DNA of 64,000 bases from Alphaproteobacteria bacterium UBA6411 (GTDB lineage: Bacteria; Pseudomonadota; Alphaproteobacteria; CAAGCB01; CAG-977). This document shows, one piece after another, positions 6,854-36,130 of the stretch. The stretch covers positions 61,684-125,683 of the forward strand of contig DJPN01000021.1 of NCBI GenBank assembly GCA_002438565.1, written 5' to 3'. Position numbers and translations under genes: made by a program. The notes beneath the pieces were generated by a model. It ran no database searches. It saw only the letters and a list, made by a program, of their open reading frames with translations, and was not told the DNA's origin. Position 1 is the stretch's first letter. The number at the start of each line of letters is the position of its first letter.

Positions 6854-6858
6854 CAGCC

Positions 6859-12784: not shown

Positions 12785-12849
12785 ACGGCCGGAACTAAAC
12801 CGAATTACGGAGAGGCTTTGAAAAAAAAGCCTCCCTTCCCGTTTAAGGA

Positions 12850-16401: not shown

Positions 16402-16622
16402 AAACCGCTTTGCCCCGGAGCCGAAAGGTCTGTCTTGCGCTCCGGTTTCTGATCGGAGACAAACAAGTTTTCAAAATCGCCAAGCCGTCCCAACGCGTTC
16501 GCCAAACGCAATAACGAATCAAAAGCGATCAGTCCTGTTCTTTCAAACCAGCGCAAAGACGCAAGCGTAACATCGGAACGGTCGCAAAGTCCTTGCTGAG
16601 ACAGGTTTTGCTCCAACCGCAA
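16389..16622 (-). CDS. XRE-type helix-turn-helix protein (possibly N-terminally truncated)
   Basis: LEQNLSQQGLCDRSDVTLASLRWFERTG resembles the XRE HTH; the start context is unclear. Confidence 0.35.
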   Translation of the reverse strand: MRLEQNLSQQGLCDRSDVTLASLRWFERTGLIAFDSLLRLANALGRLGDFENLFVSDQKPERKTDLSAPGQSGLWKS

Positions 16623-16844
16623 CGCCGAACGCCGGTCACAATCTTGACCAGATCATTTTGCCCCGCCCATTTCGATAAATCCTGAAGGTATTTAGGTCTG
16701 TCAATAAGCTGTATCGAAGCGTTTCCCATTGAAGAATCCTCCATTTATATAAGCACTTGACACTTTGTACTTTTTGTAAAATCAATGGTTTCGTAAAACG
16801 CAGTTTACAAAATATGATTTTTATCGTTTTTGAAAAGCGGTCCT

Positions 16845-18584: not shown

Positions 18585-18647
18585 AATTCAAAGAGTGTTT
18601 ATTAGCAGGTCTATTAACAGTGCTAATAGATTCCACAGTACAAAAAA

Positions 18648-18682
18648 GCCAAGTTCGTTTTTTTTCAACGACTTGGCCTTTG
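18648..18682 (-). terminator. Rho-independent terminator downstream of tRNA-Gln
   Basis: Imperfect hairpin gccaagttcg/cgacttggc followed by a T-run on the minus strand. Confidence 0.45.
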
Positions 18683-18685
18683 AAG

Positions 18686-18760
18686 TGGCTGGGGCGGCTG
18701 GACTCGAACCAGCGAATGACGGAGTCAAAGTCCGTTGCCTTACCGCTTGGCTACGCCCCA
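18686..18760 (-). tRNA. tRNA-Gln (anticodon UUG)
   Basis: Manual fold: 5' TGGGGCG acceptor, GTAGCCAAGCGGTAAGGC D-arm, anticodon loop CTTTGAC, TTCGAGTCC T-arm, 3' CGCCCCA-G-CCA; 75 nt. Confidence 0.85.
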
Positions 18761-20940: not shown

Positions 20941-23900
20941 AGTTTCAGCCGCGTCCTGCGCGACAGATTGCTTTCCAGCCCGACCGACAAGGATAAATAG
21001 TCTTTGTCCGCGTCTTCCGCAAGCGATTCAAAGCTTGTCCGCGACGCGTCGTTGATAAAGTAAGCGGTCGTTGTCGGATTTCCGCCTGTCAGCAGTCTTT
21101 GCCAGCCGGCATCCAAAGTCAGAACGGCGTCCGCCCATATATAGCTCAGCTGCACCCCGGGCTGAATGGAAACGGACGTGTCGTTCGCGTCCGAAACCGA
21201 CAGGTTGATTGCGGACACTTCGCCTTTTTCCTTATAAGCGTCTTGATGCGTATAAGCTACATTCGCGCCGACATAAGGCCTCAATCCGAATGAATGGTCG
21301 CGGCGCGGCAAGAGCCCCAAAGTGTAACCGGCATTGATTCCGCCCTCGACCGTGTATCCGTTATATGACGATTTGCTGATGGCGGAAAGTCCCGTGATAT
21401 CGGTTTTGCGTCGTCCTTCGTAACGCTGGACGCCGCCCAAAACAACCGCATCCACATTGACGCGGCCAAAGCGCGTCCCTGCGTAAACGCCCGCGCGGTA
21501 ATCCTGCACAATCATTCTGTCGCCGTCTTGGGCCGAACGCGTATGGGCGAATCCCGCCGTCAAACCAAGCAAAAAGTCGTCGGACGATTGCCAATCAAAT
21601 CCGAACTGTCCGCCGACCGTATCCGATTTTTGCGTGCTGCGGCTTGTCTTTCCGGACACGCCGAAACGCGCATGACCGCCCAAAGCTTGCGCCCAAATTT
21701 TTGCCGTCGAAACGTCGTCGCCGCCCGACCTGCCGCGGTAATAACGCCCCCGATACCGGAATTGCGGCGTTTGATTGCGCAAAGCGGGAATGACTTCGCG
21801 CTGACTGCGGATTTGAAACAAATGCGAATAAACGTTGTTCGCCACAGTCCCCGACAGCGGCAGGCTTTGATTCCGCACGGCTTGAATTTGGTCGCGCACG
21901 GTGTTTATCGTTTTTTTCAGTTCCGTTCCCGATTGATAATAATAGCCGCGGAATTCTTTGTTGCCGTCCGTTTTAAACATTTTGTCGATTGCTTTGGCAA
22001 CGGACAGTTCTTTCGCGTCCAGTTCGGGCATGTTTGCCGGATCGCTCATATTCAAATAGGTAACCGTCATATTCAAACTGTTCCCGCTTTTGACCATCTT
22101 GCCGTCAACCAGCCCGATTAAGCGGATGGAGTCTTTGAAACCGCTCCCCACGGTCAAAGAGGACGACGCTTCCAGCACAGTATAAGTCTTTTCATCGTTG
22201 TACATCGCCAAAACCGATGTCGCCGCCGTAAATTGGCCTTTTGTCAAGACCGCCTCTTCCACGGTCATTTTCAGCAAATCGCCGTTCGCGTCGGTCAGCA
22301 AGGCGATATTGCCTTCGTTCGTAAACTTTTTCACGGAAAACGACGAACCGATTGTCGCCCCTTCCTTGTTGTTCAGCTCGCCGCCGGAAACGGCGACGGT
22401 TTCAAGCACGCCGTGGTTGTTGAAAACCGCCGAATCCGTATTTTGAATCGTCCCGCCCAAAGTTCCCGCATAATAATTGAACGTTCCCTCGTTAATCAAA
22501 ACCGCCGTTTCGGACGCCGTCGCCGCAAGCGAACCACCTTTCATCGTAAACGCCGATTGATTTTTCAAACCGCCCGTCAGCGCGCCGCCCGTCATGGTCA
22601 AAACGCCCGCGTTGCCGACTTCCCCCGACAATGTTCCGCCGGAAACTTCGGTTTTGCCCGAATTGCTCCACGCCCCCGCAACCGAACCTTTGCTGATTGA
22701 AGCCGTCGTTCCCGCCGCGATGTCCACCGCGCCCGCAATCGCCGCGCCGTCGACAACCAGTTTTCCCGTTCCGCCTGTTTTTGCGCCGCCTTCCAAAGCT
22801 CCAGTCAGCTTCAACGTTCCCGCGGAAACGGACGTGTCACCTTTATAAGTGTTTTTGCCGCTCAGCGTCAGCGTTCCCTCGCCCGTTTTTTCAAAACCCA
22901 ATTCCTCTGTCGTGTTTCGCTGGGAAATATCATTTGAAAACACAACGTCGAATTTCGTCGGAATTTCCAGCGTATATACGGCGGAATCCATGCGCGAACC
23001 GTCCAAAGCCCCCAATCCTTTCAAAGCTTTGCCGACATCCAAAATGCCCGCGCCGTACGCCTGCGCATAAGTAATTGACGCAAATTCGTACATTTCTCCG
23101 TCTTTCGTGCAGGATGTCTTTCCTTCGTTGCAGGTCAAGCCCAACTGCTTGATAACATCGTCTTGCGTAACAACCGCTTCGTTTTCGCCCGCCTTGTTGT
23201 CCGTAAAATAAACAATTCTGTATGCCGTATCGCCGTCTTCATCGGTCAGCTGCTGTTCCGCATAGGCCGAAAAGCCCGAAAAATCATTATTGGCCGTCGT
23301 CAGCAATACGTCACCGATTTGCTTGCCGCTCAGAAACGAAAACTTTTCCTGCACCAAAGCCGCCGCGCCCGATACAATCGGAGCCGCCGCCGACGTCCCG
23401 CTGACAGCCTCGTAACCGTTATTCCCTTCTCCGCCCGTTGCCGCGTAAATACCGACACCGGGGGCGGAAATCGTCCAATTCGCCGCATCCCCCGCCAAAT
23501 TTGTAAAGCTTGCCAAAAAAGAGGAACTGCTTTTGTCTTGCGAGGAATCAAACGCGACAACGTTAATCACATTTTTCAGCGTGCCGTCTGCAATCGGCGC
23601 CGCCGCGGGCAATAACGGATTGACGCCCATTTCGTTTCCCGCAGAAGCGACCAGCAGCTTGTTGGACACTTTACGCGCCAAATCCGCATATGCCTTTTTT
23701 GCCTCTTCGGTCAAAGAACTGCCCCAACTGGCATTAATAATTTTAACGTCTTTGTACGCATCCGACGCCAATGTATCGAAAATAGAGCTTATCGTCTGAC
23801 AGGTCGTGCAAACCGAATTGTCTTCGCTGGCTATGTCCTTTCCCGAAAAAGCCAGCAAATACGAATTGTACGCCACCCCCTGCAAACCCAGATCGTTTTG

Positions 23901-24185
23901 CGCCGCACCGATAACCGAAGCAACCGCCGTGCCGTGATTTTGCCGATGATCGCCCGACAGCGTCATTTTGTCCTTAAATTCCTGATGCGTCGCCCAAAAA
24001 CCGTTGTCAACGATTGCGACGCGCACATCCTTGCCGGACAGCCCTTCTTCATACGCCGAGGACAAGTTGATGGCGTCCCACGCGGATTTATTGACATTGT
24101 ATTCGGCATCCGAAGCCGACGCGGCGGCGGGGAACACCAACAAAGACAAAACAAACGGCAGTTTATTCATAGCGGCAACTTTCAA
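20868..24185 (-). CDS. Subtilisin-like (S8) serine protease autotransporter, NalP/AspA-like, 1105 aa
   Basis: Signal peptide; S8 catalytic triad motifs VAIVDNGF (D), HGTAVASVIGA (H), GTSAAAPIVSGAAAL (S); C-terminal beta-barrel ending ...AAVQYAF. Confidence 0.8.
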   Translation of the reverse strand: MKVAAMNKLPFVLSLLVFPAAASASDAEYNVNKSAWDAINLSSAYEEGLSGKDVRVAIVDNGFWATHQEFKDKMTLSGDHRQNHGTAVASVIGAAQNDLGLQGVAYNSYLLAFSGKDIASEDNSVCTTCQTISSIFDTLASDAYKDVKIINASWGSSLTEEAKKAYADLARKVSNKLLVASAGNEMGVNPLLPAAAPIADGTLKNVINVVAFDSSQDKSSSSFLASFTNLAGDAANWTISAPGVGIYAATGGEGNNGYEAVSGTSAAAPIVSGAAALVQEKFSFLSGKQIGDVLLTTANNDFSGFSAYAEQQLTDEDGDTAYRIVYFTDNKAGENEAVVTQDDVIKQLGLTCNEGKTSCTKDGEMYEFASITYAQAYGAGILDVGKALKGLGALDGSRMDSAVYTLEIPTKFDVVFSNDISQRNTTEELGFEKTGEGTLTLSGKNTYKGDTSVSAGTLKLTGALEGGAKTGGTGKLVVDGAAIAGAVDIAAGTTASISKGSVAGAWSNSGKTEVSGGTLSGEVGNAGVLTMTGGALTGGLKNQSAFTMKGGSLAATASETAVLINEGTFNYYAGTLGGTIQNTDSAVFNNHGVLETVAVSGGELNNKEGATIGSSFSVKKFTNEGNIALLTDANGDLLKMTVEEAVLTKGQFTAATSVLAMYNDEKTYTVLEASSSLTVGSGFKDSIRLIGLVDGKMVKSGNSLNMTVTYLNMSDPANMPELDAKELSVAKAIDKMFKTDGNKEFRGYYYQSGTELKKTINTVRDQIQAVRNQSLPLSGTVANNVYSHLFQIRSQREVIPALRNQTPQFRYRGRYYRGRSGGDDVSTAKIWAQALGGHARFGVSGKTSRSTQKSDTVGGQFGFDWQSSDDFLLGLTAGFAHTRSAQDGDRMIVQDYRAGVYAGTRFGRVNVDAVVLGGVQRYEGRRKTDITGLSAISKSSYNGYTVEGGINAGYTLGLLPRRDHSFGLRPYVGANVAYTHQDAYKEKGEVSAINLSVSDANDTSVSIQPGVQLSYIWADAVLTLDAGWQRLLTGGNPTTTAYFINDASRTSFESLAEDADKDYLSLSVGLESNLSRRTRLKLWADQKRSDNNVISTLSAAVQYAF

Positions 24186-24831: not shown

Positions 24832-24951
24832 TATACGAACGGGAAGCCCCGCTTATGTCCAGAGCAATCAGCTTAAAACACGGGGGAAAAGTGCCGTCAA
24901 CGCGCTTCTCAATCTAAATCCCGTTCACTTGATAAATTGAGGAGAGGCTTC

Positions 24952-26424
24952 ATGCCCTTACTGGCTTCGTATATTAGAAATTTCAAAAATTTACGCATTC
25001 TGGTTATCGGAGACATTATGCTGGATCGTTTCGTATACGGCAAAGTCGAACGCATTTCGCCCGAAGCGCCTGTCCCCGTGTTTGATTTCAAAAAATCGTC
25101 CGACATGCTGGGTGGAGCGGGAAACGTTGTCGCAAATTTAGTGTCTTTGGGGGTGAAGACCTCTTTTATCGGCGTGGTCGGGCAAGATGACAGCGCGCGG
25201 GAAATTTCATCCTTGTTGGGAAAATTGGGGGCGTGTCATCATTTGATTCGGCTGAAAAACTATCCGACAATCGTCAAAACGCGCTTGATTGCCGGCAACA
25301 CGCATTTGCTGCGCGTCGATTGCGAAGAAAAATGGTTTACGCCGGATTCTGTTTTGCCGACCATTCGTTCCATTATTGAAAAAGCGGTAAAAAATGCGGA
25401 TTTGGTTCTTTTGTCGGATTATGCCAAGGGTGTTTTGGCCAAATCGACGGCGCAGGCGATTATCGCCGAATGTTGCAAAGCGGGTAAAAAAGTCCTTATA
25501 GATCCGAAAGGTTCCGATTGGTCGAAATACGAAAACGCAACTCTGGTCAAGCCGAATTTGAAAGAATTCAAAGAAGTGTGCGGACTTTCCGTCAATCCGT
25601 CGGATTCCGATTTTACGAAACATCTGTCCGACGGCGCAAAGCTGATTTTTAAACGCTATAAAATCAAAAGCCTGCTGATTACCTTGTCCGAACACGGTAT
25701 GGCGTACATTCATTCGTCCTCTCCCGACGAGGTTTATCAAATTCCCACCCAAGCCAAAGAAGTTTTCGACGTATCGGGTGCGGGGGATACGTCTTTGGCG
25801 ACCTTTGGCGCGGCATTCGGCGCGGGCGCTTTGCCCAAGGATGCGATGAAGCTGGCAAACACGGCGTCGGGCATAGTCGTCGGCAAAGTCGGAACGGCGT
25901 GCATTTCCGCAAACGAATTGGAAAACGCCCTGTCCGAACGCAATCCGGCCGCCGTGCCGAAAAGCAAAATCGTATCGCCGGAACAAGCCGCCGAAATCGC
26001 CGTTGAATTAAAGAAAAGCGGCAAAAAAACGGGCTTTACCAACGGCTGTTTCGATTTATTGCATTTGGGACATTTGCGATCGTTTGAAAATGCCAAAAAG
26101 GAATGTGACGTTTTGTTCGTCGGCGTGAATTCGGATGCGAGCGTCAAGCGCCACAAAGGCGATTCCCGCCCGATCCAAGATGAAAAAACGCGCGCTTTGC
26201 TGGTCGCTTCATTGGAAACGGTGGATTATGTCATCGTTTTTGACGACGACACGGCGCTTCCTTTGGTCGAAAAAATCCGTCCCGACGTTATCGCGAAAGA
26301 GGGTTATTTGCTTCAAAACTGGCCGGAGGCGCAATTCGTCGTTTCTTACGGCGGCCGCGCCGTTACGTTAAAGCGCGTTGACGGCTATTCCACCACGCAA
26401 ACCGTTGAAAGGATTAAACACTGA
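24952..26424 (+). CDS. hldE: Bifunctional D-beta-D-heptose 7-phosphate kinase / D-beta-D-heptose 1-phosphate adenylyltransferase
   Basis: N-terminal PfkB-like kinase domain and C-terminal cytidylyltransferase-like domain (GCFDLLHLGHLRSFENAKKECDVLFVGVNSD); gaggagagg RBS before the internal ATG. Confidence 0.85.
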   Translation: MPLLASYIRNFKNLRILVIGDIMLDRFVYGKVERISPEAPVPVFDFKKSSDMLGGAGNVVANLVSLGVKTSFIGVVGQDDSAREISSLLGKLGACHHLIRLKNYPTIVKTRLIAGNTHLLRVDCEEKWFTPDSVLPTIRSIIEKAVKNADLVLLSDYAKGVLAKSTAQAIIAECCKAGKKVLIDPKGSDWSKYENATLVKPNLKEFKEVCGLSVNPSDSDFTKHLSDGAKLIFKRYKIKSLLITLSEHGMAYIHSSSPDEVYQIPTQAKEVFDVSGAGDTSLATFGAAFGAGALPKDAMKLANTASGIVVGKVGTACISANELENALSERNPAAVPKSKIVSPEQAAEIAVELKKSGKKTGFTNGCFDLLHLGHLRSFENAKKECDVLFVGVNSDASVKRHKGDSRPIQDEKTRALLVASLETVDYVIVFDDDTALPLVEKIRPDVIAKEGYLLQNWPEAQFVVSYGGRAVTLKRVDGYSTTQTVERIKH

Positions 26425-26990
26425 TGCAGCAGGAAATCATTGCTTCGTTTCAGGAAAACGTTGCCGGTTTTACGGAAATCCAAACTTTGGCGCCCGTTAT
26501 CGAAAAAATCGCGCTGATATGCATTGACGCGATCCGCAACAACCGCAAAGTGATGTTTTGCGGCAATGGCGGTTCGGCGGCGGATTCGCAGCATTTGGCG
26601 GCGGAGCTGGTCGGGCGGTATAAAATGAACCGCCCCGCAATGAATGCGATAGCTTTGACAACGGACAGTTCGATTTTGACGGCGATCGGGAACGATTACG
26701 GTTATGACACGATTTTTGAACGCCAGGTCGAAGGCTTGGGGCAAAAAGGCGACGTTTTGGTCGGCATATCGACTTCGGGCAATTCAAAAAATGTGCTGCG
26801 CGCTTTTGAAATGGCGCGCAAAAAAGGCGTTTCGACGGTTGCTTTTACGGGAAAATCGGGCGGCAGAATGAAAGAAACGGCCGATATTTGCGTCAACGTG
26901 CCGTCCGACGTCACAAACCATATTCAAGAAATGCACATTGCCGTCGGGCATTTGATTTGCGGATTGGTCGAAAGGGTTGTCAATGGCTAA
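26424..26990 (+). CDS. gmhA: Phosphoheptose isomerase (SIS domain)
   Basis: SIS-domain motifs ...VMFCGNGGSAADSQHLAAEL ... GISTSGNSKNV...; start overlaps the hldE stop. Confidence 0.85.
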   Translation: MQQEIIASFQENVAGFTEIQTLAPVIEKIALICIDAIRNNRKVMFCGNGGSAADSQHLAAELVGRYKMNRPAMNAIALTTDSSILTAIGNDYGYDTIFERQVEGLGQKGDVLVGISTSGNSKNVLRAFEMARKKGVSTVAFTGKSGGRMKETADICVNVPSDVTNHIQEMHIAVGHLICGLVERVVNG

Positions 26991-27495
26991 AGCTTTGTTT
27001 TTGGATCGCGACGGTACAATCAACATTGATTACGGATACGTTTTTGAACCCGAACGGTTTGAATTCGTTGACGGAATCTTTGATTTATGCCATGCGGCGC
27101 AATCCAAAGGCTTTAAAATCATTGTTTGCACGAACCAATCGGGCATTGCGCGCGGGTATTTCACCGAAGCCGACTTTCAAAAAATTACGGCGCATATGGT
27201 GAAAAAGTTTTCTGAACAACGCATTGAAATCGCGGACGTTTTTCATTGTCCGACATTGGACGGCATTGACCGCAAGCCCAATACGGGAATGTTCGTCAAA
27301 GCGCGCGACAAACACGGAATCAATATGGCGGCAAGTATTTCCTTGGGTGACAGCGAACGCGACGTGATTGCGGGAATAAACGCAGGCGTCGGAACAAATT
27401 ATTTGTTGTCGAAAAAGAAAATCGCCGCTCCGATTTGCCCCGTTGTTTCAAGCTGCCGCGAATTGGCGGAACTCATTGAAAAAGGTGTCGAATGA
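26977..27495 (+). CDS. gmhB: D,D-heptose 1,7-bisphosphate phosphatase (HAD, histidinol-phosphatase-like)
   Basis: ALFLDRDGTIN motif I, CTNQSGIARGYF motif; overlaps the gmhA end. Confidence 0.8.
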   Translation: MSMAKALFLDRDGTINIDYGYVFEPERFEFVDGIFDLCHAAQSKGFKIIVCTNQSGIARGYFTEADFQKITAHMVKKFSEQRIEIADVFHCPTLDGIDRKPNTGMFVKARDKHGINMAASISLGDSERDVIAGINAGVGTNYLLSKKKIAAPICPVVSSCRELAELIEKGVE

Positions 27496-28616
27496 ATTAT
27501 TTTGACAAGCTGGACCATCGATCCGCCCGCATGCGCGAAAAATATCCGACTCGTCCGCGCAAAGCCGCCGCGTCAATGTTGATGTGGACTGTTAAAAACC
27601 TGTTTCCAAAGGCGGACAAAACCGTTTTTACGGATGGCAGGCTGCATATTGCCGTCAGCGTTTTGGGCGGATTGGGCGATTTGTTTTTTGCCGCGCGGTA
27701 TGTCGAAAGGCTGTCCCGTTATTTTGGACAAAAAGTTACCGTTTGCATGGAAAATAGCGCGGCGTACGCTCAGCCTGTTTTTGGCGGATTAAGCGGCGTT
27801 GAAGCGATTGTTGCCCCAAACGGCGCGCCGTGCGATATTAAAATTCGATTGGTTCGTTTTCCGGAAATCGTTTTTTGCGACTTTAAACGCTTAAAAGCCG
27901 TCGGCGACAGCAAAATCAAAGCTTATGTGCAGTCTTTGCTTGATTTTCGATCCGGCTTTCCTCTGGTATACAACAACGATTATTTTGGGTATCGCTATGC
28001 CCAAGCAAAGGGCAAAAAACGCGAAGATCAACCGGATATTGACGGGATTTTGCATTTGGCGGACGTTTCGCTGAACATACCTGCGGCCGATCCGCAAATT
28101 GGCAAGCCTTTTATCACGATTCAAACTGGATACGGCGAACATTTTAAGGGTGTGGAATCCGAAACGCGCCAATGGGGTGTCGAAAAATATGAACGGCTGA
28201 TTGAATTGCTAAAGCAGGAATACCCGCGTTTTAAGACTGTTCAAATCGGGGCGGATTATCATCCGCGCATCCAAGAAACGGATTTCGATTTGCGTGGCAA
28301 AACATCAATTCCGGAAGTGTTCGGTTTGCTGAAAAACGCCGCTCTGCATATTCAGCAGGAAGGCGGATTTGCAATCGCGCGGCACTATTTGTGCGGCAAA
28401 CCGTCGGTCGTTTTGTTCGGCCCGACGGATGAAAAATTCTTGGGGTTTCCGGAAAATTTAAATCTTCGCGCGCCGGGATTCGAATGCATATGCGAAGGAC
28501 TGACCCAAAAATGGTATCAAAAATGTTTGAAAACGGGCGGTTGCGCGGCGTGCATGCGGGCGTTGTCCGCACAAACCGTGTTTGAAAAAATCAAAGAAAG
28601 CAAAATATTGGAGTAA
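27492..28616 (+). CDS. Glycosyltransferase family 9 (LPS heptosyltransferase-like) with a ~60-aa N-terminal extension
   Basis: GT9-type C-terminal region (...LRGKTSIPEVFGLLKNAALHI...GPTD...); operon position after gmhB. Confidence 0.65.
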   Translation: MNYFDKLDHRSARMREKYPTRPRKAAASMLMWTVKNLFPKADKTVFTDGRLHIAVSVLGGLGDLFFAARYVERLSRYFGQKVTVCMENSAAYAQPVFGGLSGVEAIVAPNGAPCDIKIRLVRFPEIVFCDFKRLKAVGDSKIKAYVQSLLDFRSGFPLVYNNDYFGYRYAQAKGKKREDQPDIDGILHLADVSLNIPAADPQIGKPFITIQTGYGEHFKGVESETRQWGVEKYERLIELLKQEYPRFKTVQIGADYHPRIQETDFDLRGKTSIPEVFGLLKNAALHIQQEGGFAIARHYLCGKPSVVLFGPTDEKFLGFPENLNLRAPGFECICEGLTQKWYQKCLKTGGCAACMRALSAQTVFEKIKESKILE

Positions 28617-28619
28617 TTT

Positions 28620-29828
28620 ATGAAAAATTATTTTGAAAAACTTGAACGCAGAGTTCAAAAATATAAAACAAAATATGCAAATCGCCCGCGCAAAGCCGCA
28701 TTCAAACTCGCCTTGTGGAATACATTGTGCGTGTTTAAACGGCACAAACGTCAAGATATCGTTGATTTACAAAGCATAACAAAACCTGTCAACAAAATTG
28801 CACTTGCAATTAACGGCGGCATAGGCGATTACATCACAGCAATAAATTATGCTGCATACCTTTATAATTTTTTAAACAAACAAACACCGATAGATATTTT
28901 TGTAAAAAATCCCAAAAGCATGAAAACTCTTTTCAGCAAATCTGTCAATTTTGATTTTTTTGAACGGGATTCCATTCATGAAAAAAAGGAATATCCGCTT
29001 AAACTGAATTTGAATAGATTTCCAGAGATACTATACTGCAATGAAACCGCCCTGCATGAAATGATGCCGAATGTTATTCCTTTGCTCAACGCTTGGGAAA
29101 AAATTAAAAAAGAAGCGGGGTTGTATTTTGAAATTGACCCCCGCGCAGACGCCTTAACCGTGCAGTACGCGCAAGTTAACGGTGCCAAAAAAAGAATACA
29201 GCAACCGGATATTGACGGAATATTAGGTGTTAAGGAAGAACACCTTATAAAACTTTATCCCGAAAGTACAACGGAAGTTTTAGAAAAATTCGGATTAAAC
29301 GATTGCGTTTTTATCACAATGAACCGCGGAACGGATACAGGCAACAAAGATAACGAAGTTACGCGTATGTGGCCCTTGGAAAATTATGCAAAACTTGTAA
29401 AATTGATAAAAAACAAATATCCTCGATGCAAAATCGTGCAGTTGGGATATTCCCCCGAATGGTGCAGGCTCATAGACGGCATTGATATTGATTTGCGCGG
29501 AAAAACAACGCTTTTTGAACTGAAGTCCCTGCTTTTTGCATCCGCCTTGCACATAGATTACGAAGGAGGAATGGTTCATTTACGAAAAGCGTTAGGGGTG
29601 GGAAAATCCATAGTCCTGTTTGGTCCGACAAACCCTAACTGGCTAGGATATGATACAAATATCAATATCTGCACAAACAAATGCTGTTTTTGTGAAAATC
29701 TCACTCCGAATTGGCAAAAATATTGCTCGAATCATAAATTTCCACACATTTGCATGGAAAGCATAACTCCTGAAATGGTATTCAATAAAGTCAACGCAGT
29801 TTTATCTTCTGTAAAAAGCCGAGTGTAA
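28620..29828 (+). CDS. Second, paralogous GT9-like glycosyltransferase; AT-rich codon usage
   Basis: N-terminus MKNYFEKLERRVQKYKTKYANRPRKAAFKLALW parallels the N-terminus of the upstream gene; noticeably lower GC. Confidence 0.65.
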   Translation: MKNYFEKLERRVQKYKTKYANRPRKAAFKLALWNTLCVFKRHKRQDIVDLQSITKPVNKIALAINGGIGDYITAINYAAYLYNFLNKQTPIDIFVKNPKSMKTLFSKSVNFDFFERDSIHEKKEYPLKLNLNRFPEILYCNETALHEMMPNVIPLLNAWEKIKKEAGLYFEIDPRADALTVQYAQVNGAKKRIQQPDIDGILGVKEEHLIKLYPESTTEVLEKFGLNDCVFITMNRGTDTGNKDNEVTRMWPLENYAKLVKLIKNKYPRCKIVQLGYSPEWCRLIDGIDIDLRGKTTLFELKSLLFASALHIDYEGGMVHLRKALGVGKSIVLFGPTNPNWLGYDTNINICTNKCCFCENLTPNWQKYCSNHKFPHICMESITPEMVFNKVNAVLSSVKSRV

Positions 29829-29842
29829 AACACTCGGCTTTT
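29812..29842. terminator. Bidirectional rho-independent terminator (agccgagtg-taaaa-cactcggct flanked by A- and T-runs)
   Basis: Perfect 9-bp stem with a 5-nt loop between convergent genes. Confidence 0.6.
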
Positions 29843-29849: not shown

Positions 29850-30206
29850 TCAGTATGGATATTTCAGACGAATTTCCGCTTTTGTGTTCAGCCACAGCGT
29901 TTTCTTTTCATCCGCATCCGGACTGTTTGTCGCAACCGCTTCATCATAGTCGAATTTCAACGGATCGGCGAATGTGCAAAAAGCTTGCTGTCTGTTTTTG
30001 CGGGCGGTTTCCCTCGCGATTTCAAGCGGAACGGACGGCAACGCGCTTTTCGCATAATATCCGCCGTCATATCCGACAACGATTTCTTCATCGGTTTGCG
30101 ACACGGTGAAATCGTTTAATCCGATAATTTTGCAGTTTTCGGTCAATTCCGCTTCCGTTTTGTTAAAAGCGACGATTTTCCCGTTTTTGGTTGCTGTATG
30201 CATCAG
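29850..30206 (-). CDS. Small protein (~118 aa from MHTATKNG) translationally coupled to the tail-fibre gene; possible tail-fibre chaperone/assembly factor
   Basis: TGATG stop/start overlap with the upstream tail-fibre gene; the longer ORF-track version (start 30380) overlaps the fibre gene and is unlikely. Confidence 0.4.
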   Translation of the reverse strand: MMHTATKNGKIVAFNKTEAELTENCKIIGLNDFTVSQTDEEIVVGYDGGYYAKSALPSVPLEIARETARKNRQQAFCTFADPLKFDYDEAVATNSPDADEKKTLWLNTKAEIRLKYPY

Positions 30207-31072
30207 TTGTTTTCCCCTTGTGCGTAAATAAATCTGAACACGTTTGTTTTGCCCTGCAGGCTGTAGCCGATTGCAACGGAACTTCCTTTTCGCGCAGGCA
30301 AAGCCACAGAGAGCTCGTATCCCGCATGCGACGATACGATGTTGTATCCCAAATTCGACATGTCTTTGATACACACCCATTCACCGGCGTATTTGGCGTC
30401 TTTTGCCAACACGAACCACCCGTCCGCGGGTGCCGTGTAAAAATGCCCGCTTTCCTGCAATGTCAAATCAACGTATTTACCGCTCGGCATGCTTAAATTT
30501 GAAACAACGGATTTCCCCTCTGCTGTCAAATTGCCCAAATCCGCATTTGCTTTTGTTTCCAGCATCGCCGCCGTATTGACCTCCGATGACGCGGCGTTCG
30601 CTGCAGACGCTGTTGCGGCGGCCGCTTTCTCGACAGCCGTTTGGGCGGCCGCAGTGCAATCGGAAACCGCTTTTCTAATGCTGGGAATCAAGCTGTCCGC
30701 CGCCGTGTCGTCGAAAATATCCACTGTTACGGCGCGCGCGGATTTTTCCGCCAGCTGTTGCACCTGCATCGTCAGCTTGTCAAAGTTGCGTTCCAGCGTT
30801 TCGGCGTGCAAAATCTCGTTGTCGCGGTAGTCCGTTTCCTGCGTCAAAGGCACTTCGCGCACAATCGCGATTTCCGCCCCGTTTTCGGGAGCGTCCGCAA
30901 ACACCAGATTGCCGCCTTTGACCGTCCAGTCCGTCCGTTCCGTCTGTATGTCGTTCTTTTTCTGCCTGACTTTGATATGCTCCTTTTCCAAAAAGGAAAA
31001 CGGGATTGCAAACTCTTTCGCAACCCCGTTTCCGATATAAATCACCTTGTTTGTTTGACTGCTTACCGTCAT
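30203..31072 (-). CDS. Phage T7-type tail-fibre protein (N-terminal Phage_T7_tail-like domain, Ala-rich shaft, C-terminal tip), 289 aa
   Basis: KVIYIGNGVAKEFAIPFSFLEKEHIKV and DNEILHAETLERNFDKLTMQVQQLAEKSA resemble the T7 gp17 N-terminal region as recalled from memory; gagagga RBS 7 nt upstream. Confidence 0.6.
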   Translation of the reverse strand: MTVSSQTNKVIYIGNGVAKEFAIPFSFLEKEHIKVRQKKNDIQTERTDWTVKGGNLVFADAPENGAEIAIVREVPLTQETDYRDNEILHAETLERNFDKLTMQVQQLAEKSARAVTVDIFDDTAADSLIPSIRKAVSDCTAAAQTAVEKAAAATASAANAASSEVNTAAMLETKANADLGNLTAEGKSVVSNLSMPSGKYVDLTLQESGHFYTAPADGWFVLAKDAKYAGEWVCIKDMSNLGYNIVSSHAGYELSVALPARKGSSVAIGYSLQGKTNVFRFIYAQGENN

Positions 31073-31086
31073 TTTTTATCCTCTCA

Positions 31087-31112
31087 ATAAAAAAGCGGGG
31101 ATTTTCCCCGCC
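31087..31112 (-). terminator. Rho-independent terminator after the adenosine-deaminase gene (gcgggga-tttt-ccccgc plus T-run on the minus strand)
   Basis: Hairpin plus T-run read on the minus strand. Confidence 0.55.
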
Positions 31113-31182
31113 GTTCACAGTCAACGCACTTTCTCAATCTTACAGCATATTGTGATTATTTTTTCATGGATGTCAAGGCGCT

Positions 31183-33447
31183 TTACTTAAACCGGCAATC
31201 ATTTTGATTTTCTTCCTTGACAAAGCTTTGTTCCAGCGAGCTTTTGCGCAGGTATTCCACAAAATCGTACACTTCTTCCGCAGAAGCTCCGTTTTCCAAC
31301 AAAGTTTTGGCAATCACGGCATATTCCATCCCCAAACTGGTCTGGAACACCGCGCTGTCATCCGTGTTGACGCATACCGGCACATCGCAATCCGCCGCGG
31401 CCAAAGAATAAAGGCCGTGCCTGTTCAGCGCAAACAGCGGCAAATCCGCAAAGTTGTCTATCGGCGATATTTTCCGGTTTGACGACGGATTGGCTTCAAC
31501 GGCTATTCCTTTTTCCGCAATCAGCTTTTTCAGAAAAGACTGACATTCGGACAGAACTTTCAAATACGTTTCGTCAACGCGGATTTTAACCTCTTTGTTC
31601 CTTTGTTTTTTATATTTTTCATCGTAAAAATAGCACCAATTCAGCTTGCGCGCCGTTTCGCTTCGGACAGCTTCGCGATAAGCGGCATTTCCACCGTTTT
31701 GCCGCCAAACTTCGAGAGAATTCGGGGCGTCCCCTTCTTGATTGTACAGTTCGGGATCATCCGCCCTCAACCGCCATGAAGCCAGATAAGTGTCTATATC
31801 CACGGCGCAAAAATCGCCCCGTCCTTCAAAAATCACATTTCTGATTTCCGTAAAGCGGTTTGAAACCTCAAACGACAGCAAAGGGTCAGCCCCCTGTTTC
31901 CTCAGCATGAAAAACAGCCACGCCAGATTGTCCAGATATTCCCCCGCCGGTATGACGACACATTCCATTCGTGTTTGCGCCAGCTGCCGCGGGCATGCCC
32001 CCAAAGCCAATGCATGTCCCAATCTGTCCCCGCGCCGGAAATTAAAGAAATCAATCACTTCATAGATGGCGCGCAAACCGGAACACAGCGACGTGTACAC
32101 TTCCCCGACATGGTAAGTAAACGATAAATCCGCCTTTTCGGCGCGGCATCGTCTGAAATACGGCGCATACAATTCGGGCTTCACGCACAATTCATCCCCC
32201 GCCGCGTCAATGCCGACGACATATTGAGAATAGGAACTGTTCAGCAGTCCTAAAATTTTTCTTGATTGATTGTTTATATCGCTTGTTTGGTGTAAAAGCG
32301 TTTTTCCTTTTTTCTTTATAAAGTGAAATATATACCCGCAATTCGGTTTGTTTTCGCCGTAAACGGATGTCAGCGAAGCGTCCATTTCGCTTTGAATATA
32401 TTTGAACTTTCTTTTTGTTTGAGGTGCGATTCTGAATTCGATTTTTGAAACAATATTTTCTTCGCTATACTTTTCAGCTATGCTTTTGTAAAGTTCTCCT
32501 TTGCCGCTGAACAGCAAATCTTTTTTAGCTTGACACTTTTGGAATTTTTCAAACCCCATGCCTATATTGTCCTGTGTAAACATAAAGAATTTTTGCACAA
32601 AACCTGTCAGATACAGATTGAATAAATCTCTGAACAATGGCTGAAAATCGTCTGTTTTTAAAAAACAGTTTTTCAAAAATCGCCGCTCACATTCGTAAAT
32701 TTGTCCGTTTTTATTTTTTTCGTCCAAACAATGCTGCATCCAGCGAAAATTATCCATATATTGCGCAACATTTCCATAATCTTTCGCGTCAAGAATGTTC
32801 ATGATGTCTTTCCGCGATAAAAAATTTTCATTCATAATATAATATTCAAGATATATTCTCAGCATTTTTAATTTCAGAGAAAAAATATCATCAAATTCTT
32901 TTATTTTGCAATAAAATGGCTTTTTGTAAATAAACGCGTACCAATTCAGCTCCGTCGAATATCCCGAAGCGTTCAAATGCATGTGGTTTTCGGCAACACC
33001 TTTTTCTTTCAAAGTGCTGCACAGCCGATGATTGTCATGTCCCGGCAAAAAAGAAAGCGGCAAATCTTTGGACGGGAACGCTGCGATATAAATATCGGCG
33101 GGCGCAACATTGATAAAATCATTCCATTCCAATAAATTGTCAAAGTTGATTTCGAGCTTTCTCCCTTTCGGGATCAAGTATTTTTTTGCCGCTTTAACAA
33201 ACATCTCATCGGCAAAGAAATGTTGCTTATCCCCGATTTTTTCATTGATGATGTTGTCCAGCAAAGCTTCCGAATAATTGTTTGGAAACAGCCTCAAGTA
33301 CCGGTCTTTAACCGTTTGATACGTTTTTTCATCTTTTAAATCAAAAGCCTCGCCGTCCGTATAGTCCGCGGAAACAATCCGTTCGCACAGATTGTTAAAA
33401 TCCGCGTCCTTATACGCACAACGAATCAATCGCTCCAAGTTCCTCAT
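31183..33447 (-). CDS. Large divergent adenosine-deaminase-family protein (RADAR RdrB-like), 754 aa
   Basis: All four ADA-fold metal/catalytic motifs in order: NHMHLNAS (HxH), YHVGEVY (HAGE-like), DRLGHALALG (GH), CVNTDDSAV (SLNTDD); large insertions and a ~130-aa N-terminal extension; AT-rich. Confidence 0.7.
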   Translation of the reverse strand: MRNLERLIRCAYKDADFNNLCERIVSADYTDGEAFDLKDEKTYQTVKDRYLRLFPNNYSEALLDNIINEKIGDKQHFFADEMFVKAAKKYLIPKGRKLEINFDNLLEWNDFINVAPADIYIAAFPSKDLPLSFLPGHDNHRLCSTLKEKGVAENHMHLNASGYSTELNWYAFIYKKPFYCKIKEFDDIFSLKLKMLRIYLEYYIMNENFLSRKDIMNILDAKDYGNVAQYMDNFRWMQHCLDEKNKNGQIYECERRFLKNCFLKTDDFQPLFRDLFNLYLTGFVQKFFMFTQDNIGMGFEKFQKCQAKKDLLFSGKGELYKSIAEKYSEENIVSKIEFRIAPQTKRKFKYIQSEMDASLTSVYGENKPNCGYIFHFIKKKGKTLLHQTSDINNQSRKILGLLNSSYSQYVVGIDAAGDELCVKPELYAPYFRRCRAEKADLSFTYHVGEVYTSLCSGLRAIYEVIDFFNFRRGDRLGHALALGACPRQLAQTRMECVVIPAGEYLDNLAWLFFMLRKQGADPLLSFEVSNRFTEIRNVIFEGRGDFCAVDIDTYLASWRLRADDPELYNQEGDAPNSLEVWRQNGGNAAYREAVRSETARKLNWCYFYDEKYKKQRNKEVKIRVDETYLKVLSECQSFLKKLIAEKGIAVEANPSSNRKISPIDNFADLPLFALNRHGLYSLAAADCDVPVCVNTDDSAVFQTSLGMEYAVIAKTLLENGASAEEVYDFVEYLRKSSLEQSFVKEENQNDCRFK

Positions 33448-34076
33448 TGGTCTTCCGGCATAAACTGCGGGTATTTTTTCAGAAGTTCTGTCAAATCTTT
33501 ATAATACCAGCTTTTGTATGATTTTTTACCGACATTTTTCAAATGGTTTGAAATATTCTTCGCTTTTGAAGCATCATCGTCTAAAAGAGCTTTAGACATT
33601 TTGTTTGAAATATCTTTCCAATCTTCGAACGTGATATTTACCAAGAAGTTTCTTACTTTTTCTTCATCAGCACTAAGAATAGGATTATCAAGTTTCATAT
33701 TTTCAAGAATTCTAACATCATGTATATTAAATAATTCACTACAATTATCTTGGCAAAATTTCATTTTTGACAACATTTTTTTTAAACCGATCTCATATTG
33801 AGAATGATTTTTAGAATCTCCTTTCTCATCCAGCAACCAGTTAATTTTTTCATAAATTTTCTCAACAAAGCAACTTTTCTTATTATAAAATGTAACTCGC
33901 ATAAACACATCCACATCAAACAAAGAATAAAACAAATATCCGCCATTCTGAATGGCTTTCAACAGATAATTTTTCTTCAGAACAGCGCTCAACGGATCCG
34001 ACCTATAATTTATGTTATTATTATCATTCCATTCAGATTTTTCATCATTTTCAATAACTATTTGATCATGATACAT
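33444..34076 (-). CDS. Hypothetical 210-aa protein within the RADAR-like cassette (no TM segment, no known motif)
   Basis: ORF overlaps the upstream NTPase gene by 19 nt and the downstream deaminase gene by 4 nt; very AT-rich. Confidence 0.45.
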   Translation of the reverse strand: MYHDQIVIENDEKSEWNDNNNINYRSDPLSAVLKKNYLLKAIQNGGYLFYSLFDVDVFMRVTFYNKKSCFVEKIYEKINWLLDEKGDSKNHSQYEIGLKKMLSKMKFCQDNCSELFNIHDVRILENMKLDNPILSADEEKVRNFLVNITFEDWKDISNKMSKALLDDDASKAKNISNHLKNVGKKSYKSWYYKDLTELLKKYPQFMPEDQ

Positions 34077-35986
34077 ATGTTTTTAAAGCTTGAGAAATCT
34101 CTCTTTTCCGAAAAACTTTTAGGACGAGCTGATTTCCACGTTCTTTCATTCTTTATTCTTGAATAGCAAATTTGCTTTACAATTTGCTTCAAACCTTCAG
34201 CAGTTTTATGCGTTTTTAAAACAGAAACATGGTCAACAAGATTACTATCCTTTTGAGCATAAAAATAATCATCAGGCATAAATTTGCAATTTACAAGTTT
34301 ACTGTAAGCATTGTCAGGCAAACAATATTCGTCTCCATCACGTCCAATATCTTCATTAGATTTTATTAAATCTGCATTTGTACTTTCGTCTTTATTTTTT
34401 TCTTCATCTTTTTCATTTTTAACATTTTCTATATCATGCTTTTCATCATCCAAAAAATCATCTGCATCAACAGGAGCTTCTTTATTTTCAGTCAAATCAT
34501 CTTCTTTTAGAAGCATTAAATTGTTCAACAAAGAAATTGAGTAAAGCAATTTTATTAAATAGCAAAAATACATAACCTGTTCATCAAAAGGAATGCATCT
34601 CTTTACAACTCCCGTGAATTGAATTACATCACCCAACATAACATTGTACGGTTCCGTTCGTTCAATATAAATCAAATCGCCGTTATGGTATTTTTCAACC
34701 AGCACTCCGTATTCACTTTCACCTTGGGATGCATAGTAATCTCTAAGCAATTTATCCAATTTTGAGCACATGTAATAATTTTTATTTTCAACACTTGTTT
34801 TGATCCACTCATCTAAAACAGAATAATATTTATCGTCCAAATTAGCTTTTGCTCTGGAAAGTACATAATTTTGATAATTTTTCAAATTTTGTTGTAAGCT
34901 TTCTTTTAAAACACTTCCCTTTTCATCTCGCATTTCGGGCATTTCAACCAACATACGGACAAAGGCCAACATTTCGCGCAACCCGTTCGGATAAATCAAA
35001 TGCACGCGTTCCTTTTCATCTACAGGATCCAAAGGAAGTGCGACTTTGTCCCGAACCAGCTTTTCCATAAAATCATGAAAATTTGTTTTTTCGTATTCTT
35101 TTTGTTTTTCATCGGAAATTTTATTAACAAACGGCTTCAAAATATCCCATGAGGTTTCATTGAAAAATTCTTTCTGCCCCTTCAAGTAGATGCGGCGGGA
35201 AACGGGCATTTGTTTTTCATAAAATTGAATGGCTTGATCTCTGATTTCCGAAATTGAAATAATTTCTTTATCAATCAAATTTATATTCTGTTTTATGAAT
35301 TGATCTTGAATGATATTCAAAAGCTGAACTTCGCGAAATGACAGAATCACGATGCAGTTTTTATTCAGCCATTTTTGAATATCTTCAATCATGCGGTAAA
35401 CATATTTGTTCGACACCAAATCCAAATCGTCGATGCAAACAATCATTTTCGTATCTTTGTCTTTTCCGATTGCTTTGTAAAAGCTTGTTATCAATTCTTT
35501 TAATAATTCGTCAAAGCGGTAACGCTTTTGGATCGTCCGTACAATATCGGAAGGATGATTGTCTTCGTAAAAACGTTCCTTGTTTGATTTGATATGTGAA
35601 ATCACTTCCATGATTTCATTCAATTTTTTATGGAATTCAGCAAATTCACCACTACCGTTTTCTTTAGACTTTTCAACCTGTTGAGCCAAAACACTGATGA
35701 AAAATTCCGGAATCAACAAAGTATCGTCAAAAATGCTGGGATCTATCGTATCAGTTACATAAAAGTTTTTATTTTCATCAAAATGTTTTTGAACAGCTTT
35801 AATCAAGGATGTTTTGCCGCATCCGCGATTGCCGACAATGCTGATGACATTGCTGCTGTTCTTTTCAAAATCATATCCTTTGCAAAGCTTTTCAATCCGC
35901 TCTATTTCATCTTTGAAAATATCTTCGGTTTCGCCCAACGGCCCCGTGATTTTTTCCCAATCGAATTGAACAGCATTTTCAGCCAT
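34058..35986 (-). CDS. P-loop NTPase (RADAR RdrA-like/KAP-like), ~642 aa, with an acidic low-complexity C-terminal region
   Basis: Walker A GNRGCGKTSL; Walker B IVCIDDLDLV (DDLD as in KAP NTPases); start assigned to the MAENAV ATG (gaaagg RBS 9 nt upstream) rather than the ORF-track start, which overlaps a terminator. Confidence 0.65.
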   Translation of the reverse strand: MAENAVQFDWEKITGPLGETEDIFKDEIERIEKLCKGYDFEKNSSNVISIVGNRGCGKTSLIKAVQKHFDENKNFYVTDTIDPSIFDDTLLIPEFFISVLAQQVEKSKENGSGEFAEFHKKLNEIMEVISHIKSNKERFYEDNHPSDIVRTIQKRYRFDELLKELITSFYKAIGKDKDTKMIVCIDDLDLVSNKYVYRMIEDIQKWLNKNCIVILSFREVQLLNIIQDQFIKQNINLIDKEIISISEIRDQAIQFYEKQMPVSRRIYLKGQKEFFNETSWDILKPFVNKISDEKQKEYEKTNFHDFMEKLVRDKVALPLDPVDEKERVHLIYPNGLREMLAFVRMLVEMPEMRDEKGSVLKESLQQNLKNYQNYVLSRAKANLDDKYYSVLDEWIKTSVENKNYYMCSKLDKLLRDYYASQGESEYGVLVEKYHNGDLIYIERTEPYNVMLGDVIQFTGVVKRCIPFDEQVMYFCYLIKLLYSISLLNNLMLLKEDDLTENKEAPVDADDFLDDEKHDIENVKNEKDEEKNKDESTNADLIKSNEDIGRDGDEYCLPDNAYSKLVNCKFMPDDYFYAQKDSNLVDHVSVLKTHKTAEGLKQIVKQICYSRIKNERTWKSARPKSFSEKRDFSSFKNICIMIK

Positions 35987-36043
35987 TATCATCATCCTTT
36001 CGTTGATATGCAACTTATCGGATGATGATAAGACGTTTTGTCG

Positions 36044-36065
36044 CCATTGACTATATAGGCAATGG
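36044..36065. promoter_or_regulatory. Inverted repeat CCATTG-N10-CAATGG surrounding a TATATA -10-like element, 58-80 bp upstream of the NTPase start
   Basis: Perfect 6-bp arms; positioned in the only intergenic space that can hold the cassette promoter. Confidence 0.35.
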
Positions 36066-36093
36066 TTGTACGCCTTTCGGCTATATTGGCGCA

Positions 36094-36130
36094 CAAAAAA
36101 AACGCGGGCAAACAAAACCCGCGCTTTTTA
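36094..36130. terminator. Bidirectional rho-independent terminator (cgcgggcaaacaaaacccgcg flanked by A8 and T5)
   Basis: Perfect 7-bp GC-rich stem between the PfkB kinase 3' end and the RADAR-like cassette. Confidence 0.6.

Follow-up and report, generated by a model that had tools for sequence, protein, structure and literature searches.

What does a gene for a phage tail fibre do on a bacterial chromosome that carries no phage around it? We asked this of a 64,000-nucleotide (nt) stretch of Alphaproteobacteria bacterium UBA6411 (GenBank assembly GCA_002438565.1, contig DJPN01000021.1, positions 61,684 to 125,683), which is called the window below. It contains a gene for a T7-type fibre of 289 amino acids (aa) and a small gene coupled to it. 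An earlier note, made from the DNA letters, had offered three explanations: the fibre could remain from a decayed prophage, be provided in trans to a tailocin or a gene-transfer agent (GTA), or travel as cargo on a satellite or defence islet. The fibre is intact, shows purifying selection, and is not a decaying remnant. We propose, with a probability of about 0.6, that it is the trans-supplied receptor-binding module of a dispersed, podovirus-derived GTA-like element under antitermination-type control.

PF03906 (Phage_T7_tail) matched residues 9–124 of the fibre with 28.6 bits against a gathering cut-off of 25.2, which placed the protein in this family. PHROG 1640 ('tail protein') agreed (9e-35), so the T7 gp17-type N-terminal domain described in the earlier note was confirmed. 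A PDB profile search found the Dpo31/Carin-1 fibre N-domain (1.3e-10). In tblastn analysis with GenBank phages, aa 1–107/135 were 35–41% identical to fibres or tailspikes of epsilon15, phiV10, and Tyrion, and aa 171–288 were 35% identical to the fibre tip of a Desulfovibrio phage. The structure was modeled using AlphaFold 2 (AF2). The model had a mean predicted local distance difference test (pLDDT) score of 77 and consisted of an N-terminal β-sandwich (pLDDT mostly 74–86 within the N-domain), a helix at aa 125–175, and a C-terminal β-sandwich at aa 196–284, in agreement with the Ala-rich shaft and C-terminal tip read earlier from the letters. Foldseek matched the N-domain to Carin-1 (8ck1_B, E = 6e-5) and, with a probability of 1.00, to T7 (7ey7_a), Kp9 (7y1c), and PhiM1 (8vbx). 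The matched structures are fibre N-domains solved in situ on podovirus tails (T7, Carin-1, Kp7/Kp9, and PhiM1). The shaft, whose length differs among family members, is presumably a trimeric coiled coil. The tip is presumed to bind the receptor; its fold gave weak Foldseek matches to CBM6, C1q/TNF, and LecB-type jelly rolls.

No phage structural genes were found by Pfam among ~30 of the largest open reading frames (ORFs) tested in the window, and podovirus head, tail, terminase, and temperate-phage proteins gave no tblastn match to it. To this extent, the earlier statement that no phage structural genes lie nearby holds. ORFs were also called and clustered across all related fibre loci. None of the ~50 fibre loci had podovirus structural genes within 10 kb on either side, except locus L032. 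The only neighbours with homologues near fibres on viral contigs were the fibre itself, the chaperone, a few integrases, and the prophage end of L032. In that locus (71–9000), 1 kb separates the prophage end from the ordinary short-fibre cassette downstream of it. The prophage end encodes a 1499-aa protein with an LPD3 domain, a fibre of 750 aa whose T7-type N-domain is divergent, a Gly-rich protein, a helper of the PHROG-2432 type, and a lysozyme.

The fibre belongs to a large chromosomal family. The protein database contained 333 homologues, almost all of 280–310 aa, on chromosomal contigs of up to 652 kb; the few named ones were labelled as metagenome-assembled genomes (MAGs) of Alphaproteobacteria or 'Acetobacter sp.'. 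Species-representative genomes contained 56 fibre loci, which were confined to gut and rumen Alphaproteobacteria MAGs. The fibre gene is dispersed in multiple copies in several MAGs: CALDOX01 has five, DEDN01, CALYBD01, and JAFYCE01 have four each, and four further MAGs have three each. Three alphaproteobacterial fibre loci (L007, L011, and L019) come from a bin submitted as 'Limosilactobacillus gorillae' (CAVCSV01), a record that seems to be mislabelled or contaminated.

Within the family, the first ~140 residues are nearly invariant and the last ~100 are hypervariable, forming more than 20 tip classes. The median dN/dS (ratio of nonsynonymous to synonymous substitution rates) of the N-domain was 0.15; against the closest relatives of the window fibre it was 0.05–0.24, with dS of 0.24–0.55. 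N-domain identity was 83% within genomes versus 74% between genomes. Since within-genome homogenisation is this weak, gene conversion is not needed to explain the conservation of the N-domain. The closest fibre N-domain in IMG/VR was only 46% identical.

The fibre gene is preceded by a promoter and a structured leader. In the window, the promoter contains CTTGACA (−35 element at 31176–31171), a 16-nt A-rich spacer, and CACAAT (−10 element at 31154–31149). The −10 element sits inside a conserved box, AAAAAATAATCACAATATGCTGTAAG (31164–31139). The leader stem (31112–31094) had 8 pairs in a terminator scan, 6 of them G–C, and its RNAfold z-score was −2.45. An nhmmer profile was built from 40 family leaders. 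It found exactly one copy in the window (E = 1.8e-20 over the full module and 1.9e-6 over its promoter part). The module, which all family loci have in front of the fibre gene, starts with CTTGAC(A/T), an A-rich spacer (TTGAC-N16), and a box AT(N)ACA-N3-TGT(N)AT at −10. Its 3′ part consists of ~45 variable nt, a GC-rich hairpin, and a T5–9 run that ends 11–16 nt before the ATG. The hairpin was present in 41/41 distinct leaders with a median of −12.9 kcal/mol. Its stem was always paired and occurred in 36 different sequences, indicating that the structure rather than the sequence is conserved. Hairpins were called per sequence, since a MAFFT alignment put the stems out of register and RNAalifold predicted no structure from it. 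The −35/−10 spacer was also considered as a covarying palindrome, which failed on inspection of the alignment, where only the ACA-N3-TGT box was consistently conserved.

Rfam has no family for the leader. A strict version of the promoter pattern had no match in IMG/VR, and 12 of its 14 matches in metagenomes were fibre cassettes. The metagenome scan gave no regulon member besides fibres, the pattern being too strict for the terminase and head-tail cluster variants described below. By sequence, a promoter-like site with a box (31176–31149) followed by a terminator-like site (31112–31094) ahead of the genes is the arrangement of a Q/GafZ-type unit. As the terminator-like hairpin lies between the promoter and the ribosome-binding site (RBS), fibre expression is suggested to need antitermination.

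Assemblies from two sequencing runs with the ClpA-to-RdrB stretch of the window end 24 codons into the fibre gene (L142, 10929–11000; L143, 9843–9914). These ends are consistent with the module and the N-domain forming a repeat that breaks short-read assemblies. One decayed copy was found in L018 (15152–15450). It has the module and the fibre start, a stop at codon 31, and a truncation near residue 63. The dead fibre brings a second control module to this locus, where it is joined to the 3′ end of a glycan-locus acetyltransferase gene; it resembles a scar left by recombination or deletion within the conserved 5′ region of the gene.

The module is not limited to fibre genes. In L021 and L023, the fibre is directly preceded by a 437-aa gene that encodes a large terminase (TerL) and has its own module copy. 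The module is also present upstream of an orphan TerL in L158–L160. The N-terminal half of the 437-aa protein matched the P74-26 TerL ATPase domain in PDB (E = 2.7e-4), and its close homologues are named 'phage terminase large subunit' in several sources. The orphan TerL was 37% identical to that of pelagiphage HTVC010P over the full length. It follows Amidase_2, nitroreductase, and YbaK-like genes. A buffalo-rumen MAG has an 87%-identical orthologue, also orphan, with the module and at the same position. The dN/dS of the orphan TerL was 0.05–0.07. An intact temperate podophage (L161) encodes a 79%-identical TerL, and the module is absent from it.

A search from the L161 portal led to a family of 495–516-aa portals on chromosomal contigs of up to 807 kb. 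Their context is a compact head-tail cluster of 7.7–10.6 kb. The genes run in the order 107-aa protein, portal (PF12236), Bbp19-like protein, scaffold- or protease-like protein, capsid, tail-tube A, tail-tube B, gp14-like internal protein, endolysin, and two small proteins. The portal is of the T7 type and the capsid belongs to Phage_capsid_2 (PF19821). PHROG matches were 3437 for the capsid (4e-81), 394 for tail-tube A (2e-52), and 376 for tail-tube B (2e-197). In the related genomes, genes for a terminase, a fibre, an integrase, a repressor, or replication are absent from the cluster. It is located at a conserved chromosomal position in many samples (aroA-hisG-hisD ... tgt-DUF6782-[cluster] ... 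tig). Its genes are 61–86% identical between lineages, with dN/dS of 0.04–0.17 and saturated synonymous sites.

The cluster starts with a recognisably related copy of the module. In L168, the promoter is TTGACA-N16-ACATATTGTTA, and its core matches the fibre promoter of L035 at 21/22 positions. The whole L168 module consists of TTGACA, 16 nt, ACATATTGTTAATAC, the leader, a hairpin (GGCGCCTG...CAGGCGTC), a T run (T7), AGGAG, and ATG. A hairpin, T-run, and RBS resembling the 3′ part of the module also lie between the capsid and tail-tube A genes (L168, 13244–13309; L167, 13302–13371). This hairpin may be an internal attenuator that sets the capsid-to-tail stoichiometry. One sub-lineage (L164–L166 and L171–L179) has a histidine kinase of ~485 aa (HisKA + HATPase_c) between the scaffold and the capsid (e.g. 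L165, 12418–13869; L172, 8516–9988), and an extra 441–447-aa gene without a known family after the capsid. A sensor kinase inside a phage-derived structural operon is unusual.

Several observations connect the cluster and the terminase with the genome of the window. The cluster contig L169 came from run SRR1747021, which is also the source of L143, identical to the ClpA–RdrB stretch of the window. The tetranucleotide correlation was 0.978 between L169 and the window core, 0.965 between the two halves of the window, and 0.963 for the cluster alone. The closest fibre relatives, with 97% identical N-domains, are in MAGs that also carry the orphan TerL. These results are suggestive, not proof, that the head-tail cluster belongs to the window's genome.

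The variable tip is linked to what lies on the 3′ side of the cassette. In ~45/50 related loci, the fibre gene and the small gene after it face a glycan-biosynthesis operon in convergent orientation. The upstream side varies by genome and contains a resolvase, an integrase plus relaxase, HipA/HTH, toxin–antitoxin, or terminase genes; in the window, it is a RADAR-like cassette. Pairs of loci from different genomes were compared. Glycan-side gene families were common to 13/19 same-tip pairs versus 37/426 different-tip pairs (odds ratio 22.8, Fisher p = 1.6e-9, with non-independent pairs). On the upstream side, the numbers were 1/14 versus 10/404, which was not significant. As an example, a tip ending in ...YFIPLKG is always opposite GDPD and glycerophosphotransferase genes, whether the MAG comes from human gut or sheep rumen, and the upstream genes are unrelated. 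Since the fibre cassette and the operon are inherited together, the tip probably recognises, or is matched to, the surface glycan specified by the facing operon.

The upstream resolvase was also inspected. In L001–L005 and L014 (~9058–9654), a 198-aa serine recombinase (Resolvase, PF00239) lies 350 bp upstream of the fibre cassette, just after a putative tRNA gene, as judged from the translated ORF. A Gin/Cin-type invertible fibre switch was rejected: no convincing inverted repeats and no second inverted tip were found, and the resolvase is absent from most loci.

The ATG of the small gene (30203–30201) overlaps the TGA of the fibre gene (30205–30203). The TGATG overlap reported earlier was thus confirmed, with a length of 117 aa instead of ~118. 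The designation as a fibre chaperone fared less well, and this label rests on position and coupling only. PF16778 (Phage_tail_APC) did not match the small protein at E ≤ 1, which leaves it outside this family. A profile–profile comparison (hhalign) with the PF16778-type neighbours of other family loci gave a probability of 12%, a value that does not establish homology. The small protein did match PHROG 2432 (6e-6), a family of unknown function that is also found after the 750-aa fibre of the L032 prophage. A PF16778 protein occupies the position of the small gene in most other family loci, and the type of small gene (PF16778 or PHROG 2432) co-varies with the tip type across loci. The small gene is presumed to be a tip-specific assembly factor.

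How these parts would work together can be outlined. The short trimeric fibre and its tip-specific helper would serve a phage-derived particle encoded elsewhere in the chromosome. A dedicated regulator would bind the box and let RNA polymerase pass the leader terminator, much as lambda Q or GafZ of Caulobacter does, and all module-bearing loci would then fire together. The fibre N-domain would dock on the tail-tube A/B junction of the particle. The particle would package DNA with the orphan terminase and be released by the cluster endolysin. Its ancestry would be podoviral, HTVC010P- and epsilon15-like. Fibre and cluster may be physically compatible; in support, epsilon15 combines homologues of the portal and tail-tubes A/B with a tailspike that has the fibre-type N-domain.

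GTAs are defined by particles that are filled with essentially random host DNA and are unable to transfer the complete gene set that encodes them; this is their decisive functional feature. In the related genomes, the present element is fixed, inherited, and under purifying selection, as indicated by the synteny of the cluster, its dN/dS of 0.04–0.17, and the fibre N-domain value of 0.15. It is split into loci without a replication, lysogeny, or integration module, and these loci appear to be co-regulated, as inferred from sequence only. The dispersed loci, the common module, the long selection, and the lack of a self-contained phage genome therefore match the definition-level features of GTAs, save the packaging and transfer of host DNA. 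Between the two particles that the earlier note had proposed for a fibre in trans, the fibre-less and terminase-less cluster and the orphan terminase under the module in related genomes favour a GTA. A tailocin is unlikely, as portal and capsid genes are present in the partner cluster and there is a terminase; all three are among the presumably co-regulated partners, and the fibre anchor is of the podovirus type. An RcGTA-type element (Rhodogtaviriformidae) does not fit. The cluster has PF12236, PF19821, and tail-tubes A/B, the fibre has PF03906, and DUF2793 is not among the Pfam hits. In the literature searched, such an element was not described for gut Alphaproteobacteria, and the GTA-like particle would be previously undescribed. 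We consider it possible, but only tentatively, that a scattered podovirus-derived GTA (the cluster, the orphan terminase, and 3–5 fibre cassettes) is switched on by an antiterminator through the one copied module, that each fibre is welded to a different glycan operon, which would pass on receptor and ligand as a pair, and that the system serves kin-addressing (greenbeard-like) gene exchange in a host with varying glycans.

Some points weigh against the GTA-like interpretation. Particles, packaging, and transfer are predicted here from the genes. The cluster and TerL are tied to the window's genome only via a shared sample, composition, and relatives, and the 64-kb window itself holds only the fibre cassette. 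The hidden Markov model derived from the fibre leaders detects the cluster module weakly (E ~0.002–0.02), so that its identity rests on the geometry and the core box. No small terminase or gp15/gp16-type ejection proteins were identified, and no candidate gene for an antiterminator or regulator was identified in the window or the loci. Instead of terminating transcription, the hairpin could have a role in mRNA stability or in the control of translation. Fibre copy numbers were taken from MAGs, which can merge strains. The tip–glycan linkage may reflect co-transfer only. The glycan genes of epsilon15 confer resistance, so by analogy the tip may either bind the neighbour glycan or be excluded by it.

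The proposed element resembles several known systems in part. In Rhodobacter capsulatus, the tail fibre (rcc00171) and head spikes (rcc01079/rcc01080) of its GTA (RcGTA) are encoded at orphan loci beside exopolysaccharide and capsular polysaccharide (EPS/CPS) genes (PMC5026251), and the fibre and head-spike products bind the capsule (PMC10218006). The likeness is that receptor-binding genes lie far from the head-tail cluster, are co-regulated with it, evolve faster, and stand beside EPS/CPS genes. The difference is that RcGTA is siphovirus-like, with an HK97-type head, a DUF2793 fibre, one fibre locus, and the terminase inside the main cluster, whereas the gut system has podoviral ancestry, a PF03906 fibre, 3–5 fibre loci, and a promoter plus leader terminator at each locus. 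For control, the Caulobacter GTA (CcGTA) uses GafZ antitermination, with a palindromic site of the regulator within the core promoter (PMC11150451). For CcGTA GafY/GafZ and lambda Q at pR′-tR′, a regulator element in the promoter is followed by a terminator to be bypassed (PMC11150451); the window module has a conserved box at −10 and an intrinsic-terminator-like hairpin in the leader. GafZ acts at a single promoter, whereas in the gut system each dispersed locus has a module copy of its own. Neither a GafZ-like nor a Q-like gene was identified in the window or the loci.

A third comparison is FpGTA of Faecalibacterium prausnitzii, which a 2026 paper calls the first human-gut GTA-like element and the first podovirus-like one (PMC12946183). 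FpGTA is also found in a gut commensal, has more than one locus, is thought to be podovirus-like, and has genes for the receptor-binding protein and lysis in a second operon. It differs in its Firmicutes host and in that its packaging of host DNA was shown experimentally; the likeness noted here is one of description. The passages considered of that paper describe no multi-fibre, glycan-linked arrangement.

Phages provide the other comparisons. HTVC010P-type pelagiphages are the closest cultured relatives of the cluster and the orphan TerL, with identities of 52% for the capsid, 37% for the portal, 41% for tail-tube A, and 33–39% for tail-tube B. They share the gene order, which is TerL, portal, scaffold, capsid, tail A, tail B, and then endolysin. 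HTVC010P-type phages are complete lytic phages with TerL and fibres in place, whereas the chromosomal element lost ~13 kb of internal-protein and fibre genes, and its TerL and fibres moved to other loci. Epsilon15 and phiV10 have a homologous N-domain in tailspike gp20 (40% over aa 1–107). In epsilon15, the tailspike is a transcription unit of its own, convergent with glycan genes, and homologues of the cluster portal, tail-tube A, and tail-tube B occur in the same phage. By this analogy, the fibre–glycan adjacency may have been inherited from epsilon15-like seroconverting phages. A difference is that epsilon15 is a complete temperate phage whose 1070-aa tailspike has an enzymatic β-helix, and that it has 2–3 conversion genes blocking re-adsorption, not a full biosynthesis operon. 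T7 gp17 and the K1E/SP6-type adaptors also have a PF03906 N-domain, docking on the adaptor–nozzle junction, followed by a helical shaft, and the K1E/SP6-type adaptor proteins are of similar overall size (~300 aa). Compared with these, the window fibre has a hypervariable jelly-roll tip and a coupled helper, and is chromosomal, multi-copy, and outside a phage genome.

Other explanations were weighed against these data. The chromosomal cassettes might be a reservoir of alternative fibres, or a supply in trans, for temperate podophages. A late regulator of the phage would switch them on, and the fibres would be built into progeny or captured by recombination via the conserved 5′ part. The existence of L161 in these communities, the prophage end beside the L032 cassette, the mosaic family of common N-domains with swapped tips, and the scar-like truncated copy all agree with this idea. 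However, the module is absent from L161, the promoter pattern has no match in IMG/VR, and the closest viral N-domain is the distant one mentioned above; the N-domain of the L032 prophage fibre is divergent as well. A self-sufficient phage would also not need a module common to a fixed head-tail cluster and an orphan TerL. We judge this explanation unlikely. Purifying selection, several intact copies per genome, conserved regulation, and the contrast with the dead copy in L018 contradict the leftover of a decayed prophage suggested earlier. In its best form, the fibre would be the last piece of an epsilon15-like seroconverting prophage beside glycan genes, with no present function. This would explain why it is an orphan within 64 kb; the epsilon15 tailspike is convergent with O-antigen genes, and at least one decayed family copy exists. 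Both ORFs are nevertheless intact and coupled, the N-domain is constrained at the dN/dS and dS values given above, hundreds of homologues keep their length, with several per genome, and the promoter and structured leader are conserved with compensated stems. We give this explanation very little credence, and it is largely refuted.

The remaining two explanations start from the defence genes next to the fibre. A host could make the fibre on infection as a decoy that fills the tail sites of an invading podophage and disables or misdirects its progeny. A conserved attachment domain paired with short tips would suit such a role, and antitermination-type control could answer a phage regulator. But the adjoining defence cassette is a separate low-GC insertion, absent from all ~50 related fibre loci compared, and PADLOC gave no hit to either the fibre or the small protein. 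The dedicated assembly partner and the hypervariable, glycan-linked tips fit real receptor binding, and a decoy has no need of a co-regulated terminase and head-tail cluster. We regard it as highly improbable. Still harder to believe is that a single mobile unit brought in both the fibre and the KAP-NTPase/RdrB-like cassette. They are neighbours on one strand, and the stop codon of the RdrB-like gene is 5 nt from the −35 element of the fibre. The GC content is 0.37 in the defence cassette, 0.50 in the fibre cassette, and 0.53 in the core. As the fibre cassette is close to the core in this respect, it belongs with the glycan locus and not with the defence islet. No related locus pairs the two, the tip class follows the glycan side and not the upstream side, and no integrase or satellite hallmark flanks the pair. 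The reading as satellite or defence-islet cargo was thus unsupported: the cassette is linked to the glycan operon at its 3′ side, and its 5′ side varies between genomes. Of the earlier statement that the fibre shares an islet with the RADAR-like cassette, the adjacency was confirmed and the shared unit was not. The data are best accounted for by the GTA-like element described above.

The features of the locus are listed in Table 1.

Table 1. Features of the fibre locus, in window coordinates
Feature	Position	Strand	Basis or remark
Fibre coding sequence, complete	30203–31072	−	289 aa
Fibre aa 1–115, T7-gp17-type N-terminal tail-attachment domain	30728–31072	−	Pfam, PHROG, PDB profile, Foldseek
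Fibre aa 125–175, Ala-rich helical shaft	30548–30700	−	AF2 helix
Fibre aa 196–284, hypervariable C-terminal β-sandwich tip	30221–30487	−	AF2; pLDDT 80–92
Promoter-like block	31139–31177	−	Sigma-70 scan, 10/12 matches; nhmmer
Leader hairpin GGCGGGGAAAATCCCCGCT + T6 run	31089–31112	−	Intrinsic-terminator-like, between promoter and RBS
RBS GAGAGGAT	31078–31085	−	5 nt upstream of fibre ATG; read from sequence
Small gene, 117 aa, TGATG-coupled to fibre	29850–30203	−	PHROG 2432; presumed tip-specific assembly factor
Hairpin GCCGAGTGTTTTACACTCGGC + T-run 3′ of small gene	29813–29838	−	Read from sequence
Convergent glycan operon	24937–29828	+	Pfam; linked partner locus of the cassette by inference
Defence cassette	31183–36115	−	KAP-family P-loop NTPase, 685 aa; 210-aa protein without family; 754-aa adenosine-deaminase protein

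Pfam assigned the genes of the glycan operon to an HldE-like kinase/cytidylyltransferase, a GmhA-like SIS isomerase, a GmhB-like HAD phosphatase, and two GT9-like transferases. The hairpin GCCGAGTGTTTTACACTCGGC separates this operon from the fibre cassette, the two being convergent transcription units; it was not reported by the terminator scan. On the 5′ side of the fibre lie the KAP-NTPase, 210-aa, and RdrB-like genes, followed by PfkB and ClpA. The 754-aa protein matched RdrB of PADLOC (1e-29). The defence cassette resembles RADAR, with the KAP NTPase standing in place of RdrA. A 10-nt repeat, TGCGTTGACT, flanks the fibre cassette and was considered as a target-site duplication. It is part of a leader motif of some loci and has a third copy at 31573, and it was treated as chance.

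The rest of the window contains an integrase/Abi/HNH island, two autotransporters, and core genes including those for RpoD, DnaG, Dxs, and LpxL. The island (1–18760) is an integrative one adjoining tRNA-Gln (18686–18760), with a low-GC stretch at 14–16 kb. It encodes tyrosine recombinases (8568–9164 and 16845–18584), a DEAD/ResIII helicase, Abi_2, an HNH nuclease, and a DUF2779 protein, and no structural phage genes were found among its ORFs tested. The large autotransporters are both on the minus strand: one of 1105 aa with a subtilase passenger (20868–24185), and one of 1981 aa whose passenger has no assigned family (52459–58404).

To our knowledge, GTAs are known from few lineages. If our interpretation is true, a whole uncultured gut and rumen lineage of Alphaproteobacteria has independently domesticated a second podovirus and uses it as a dispersed machine for gene exchange, and its multi-fibre system would extend the single example of RcGTA. 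The copied promoter–terminator module would be a simple sequence signature for finding the parts of the system. The interpretation would also explain why such 'orphan' fibre genes break assemblies and get called prophage debris. The loci would provide a catalogue of naturally paired tips and helpers, for which glycan partners are predicted, and the pairing of fibre tip and glycan operon would be a testable model of particle targeting that co-evolves with surface-glycan diversity.

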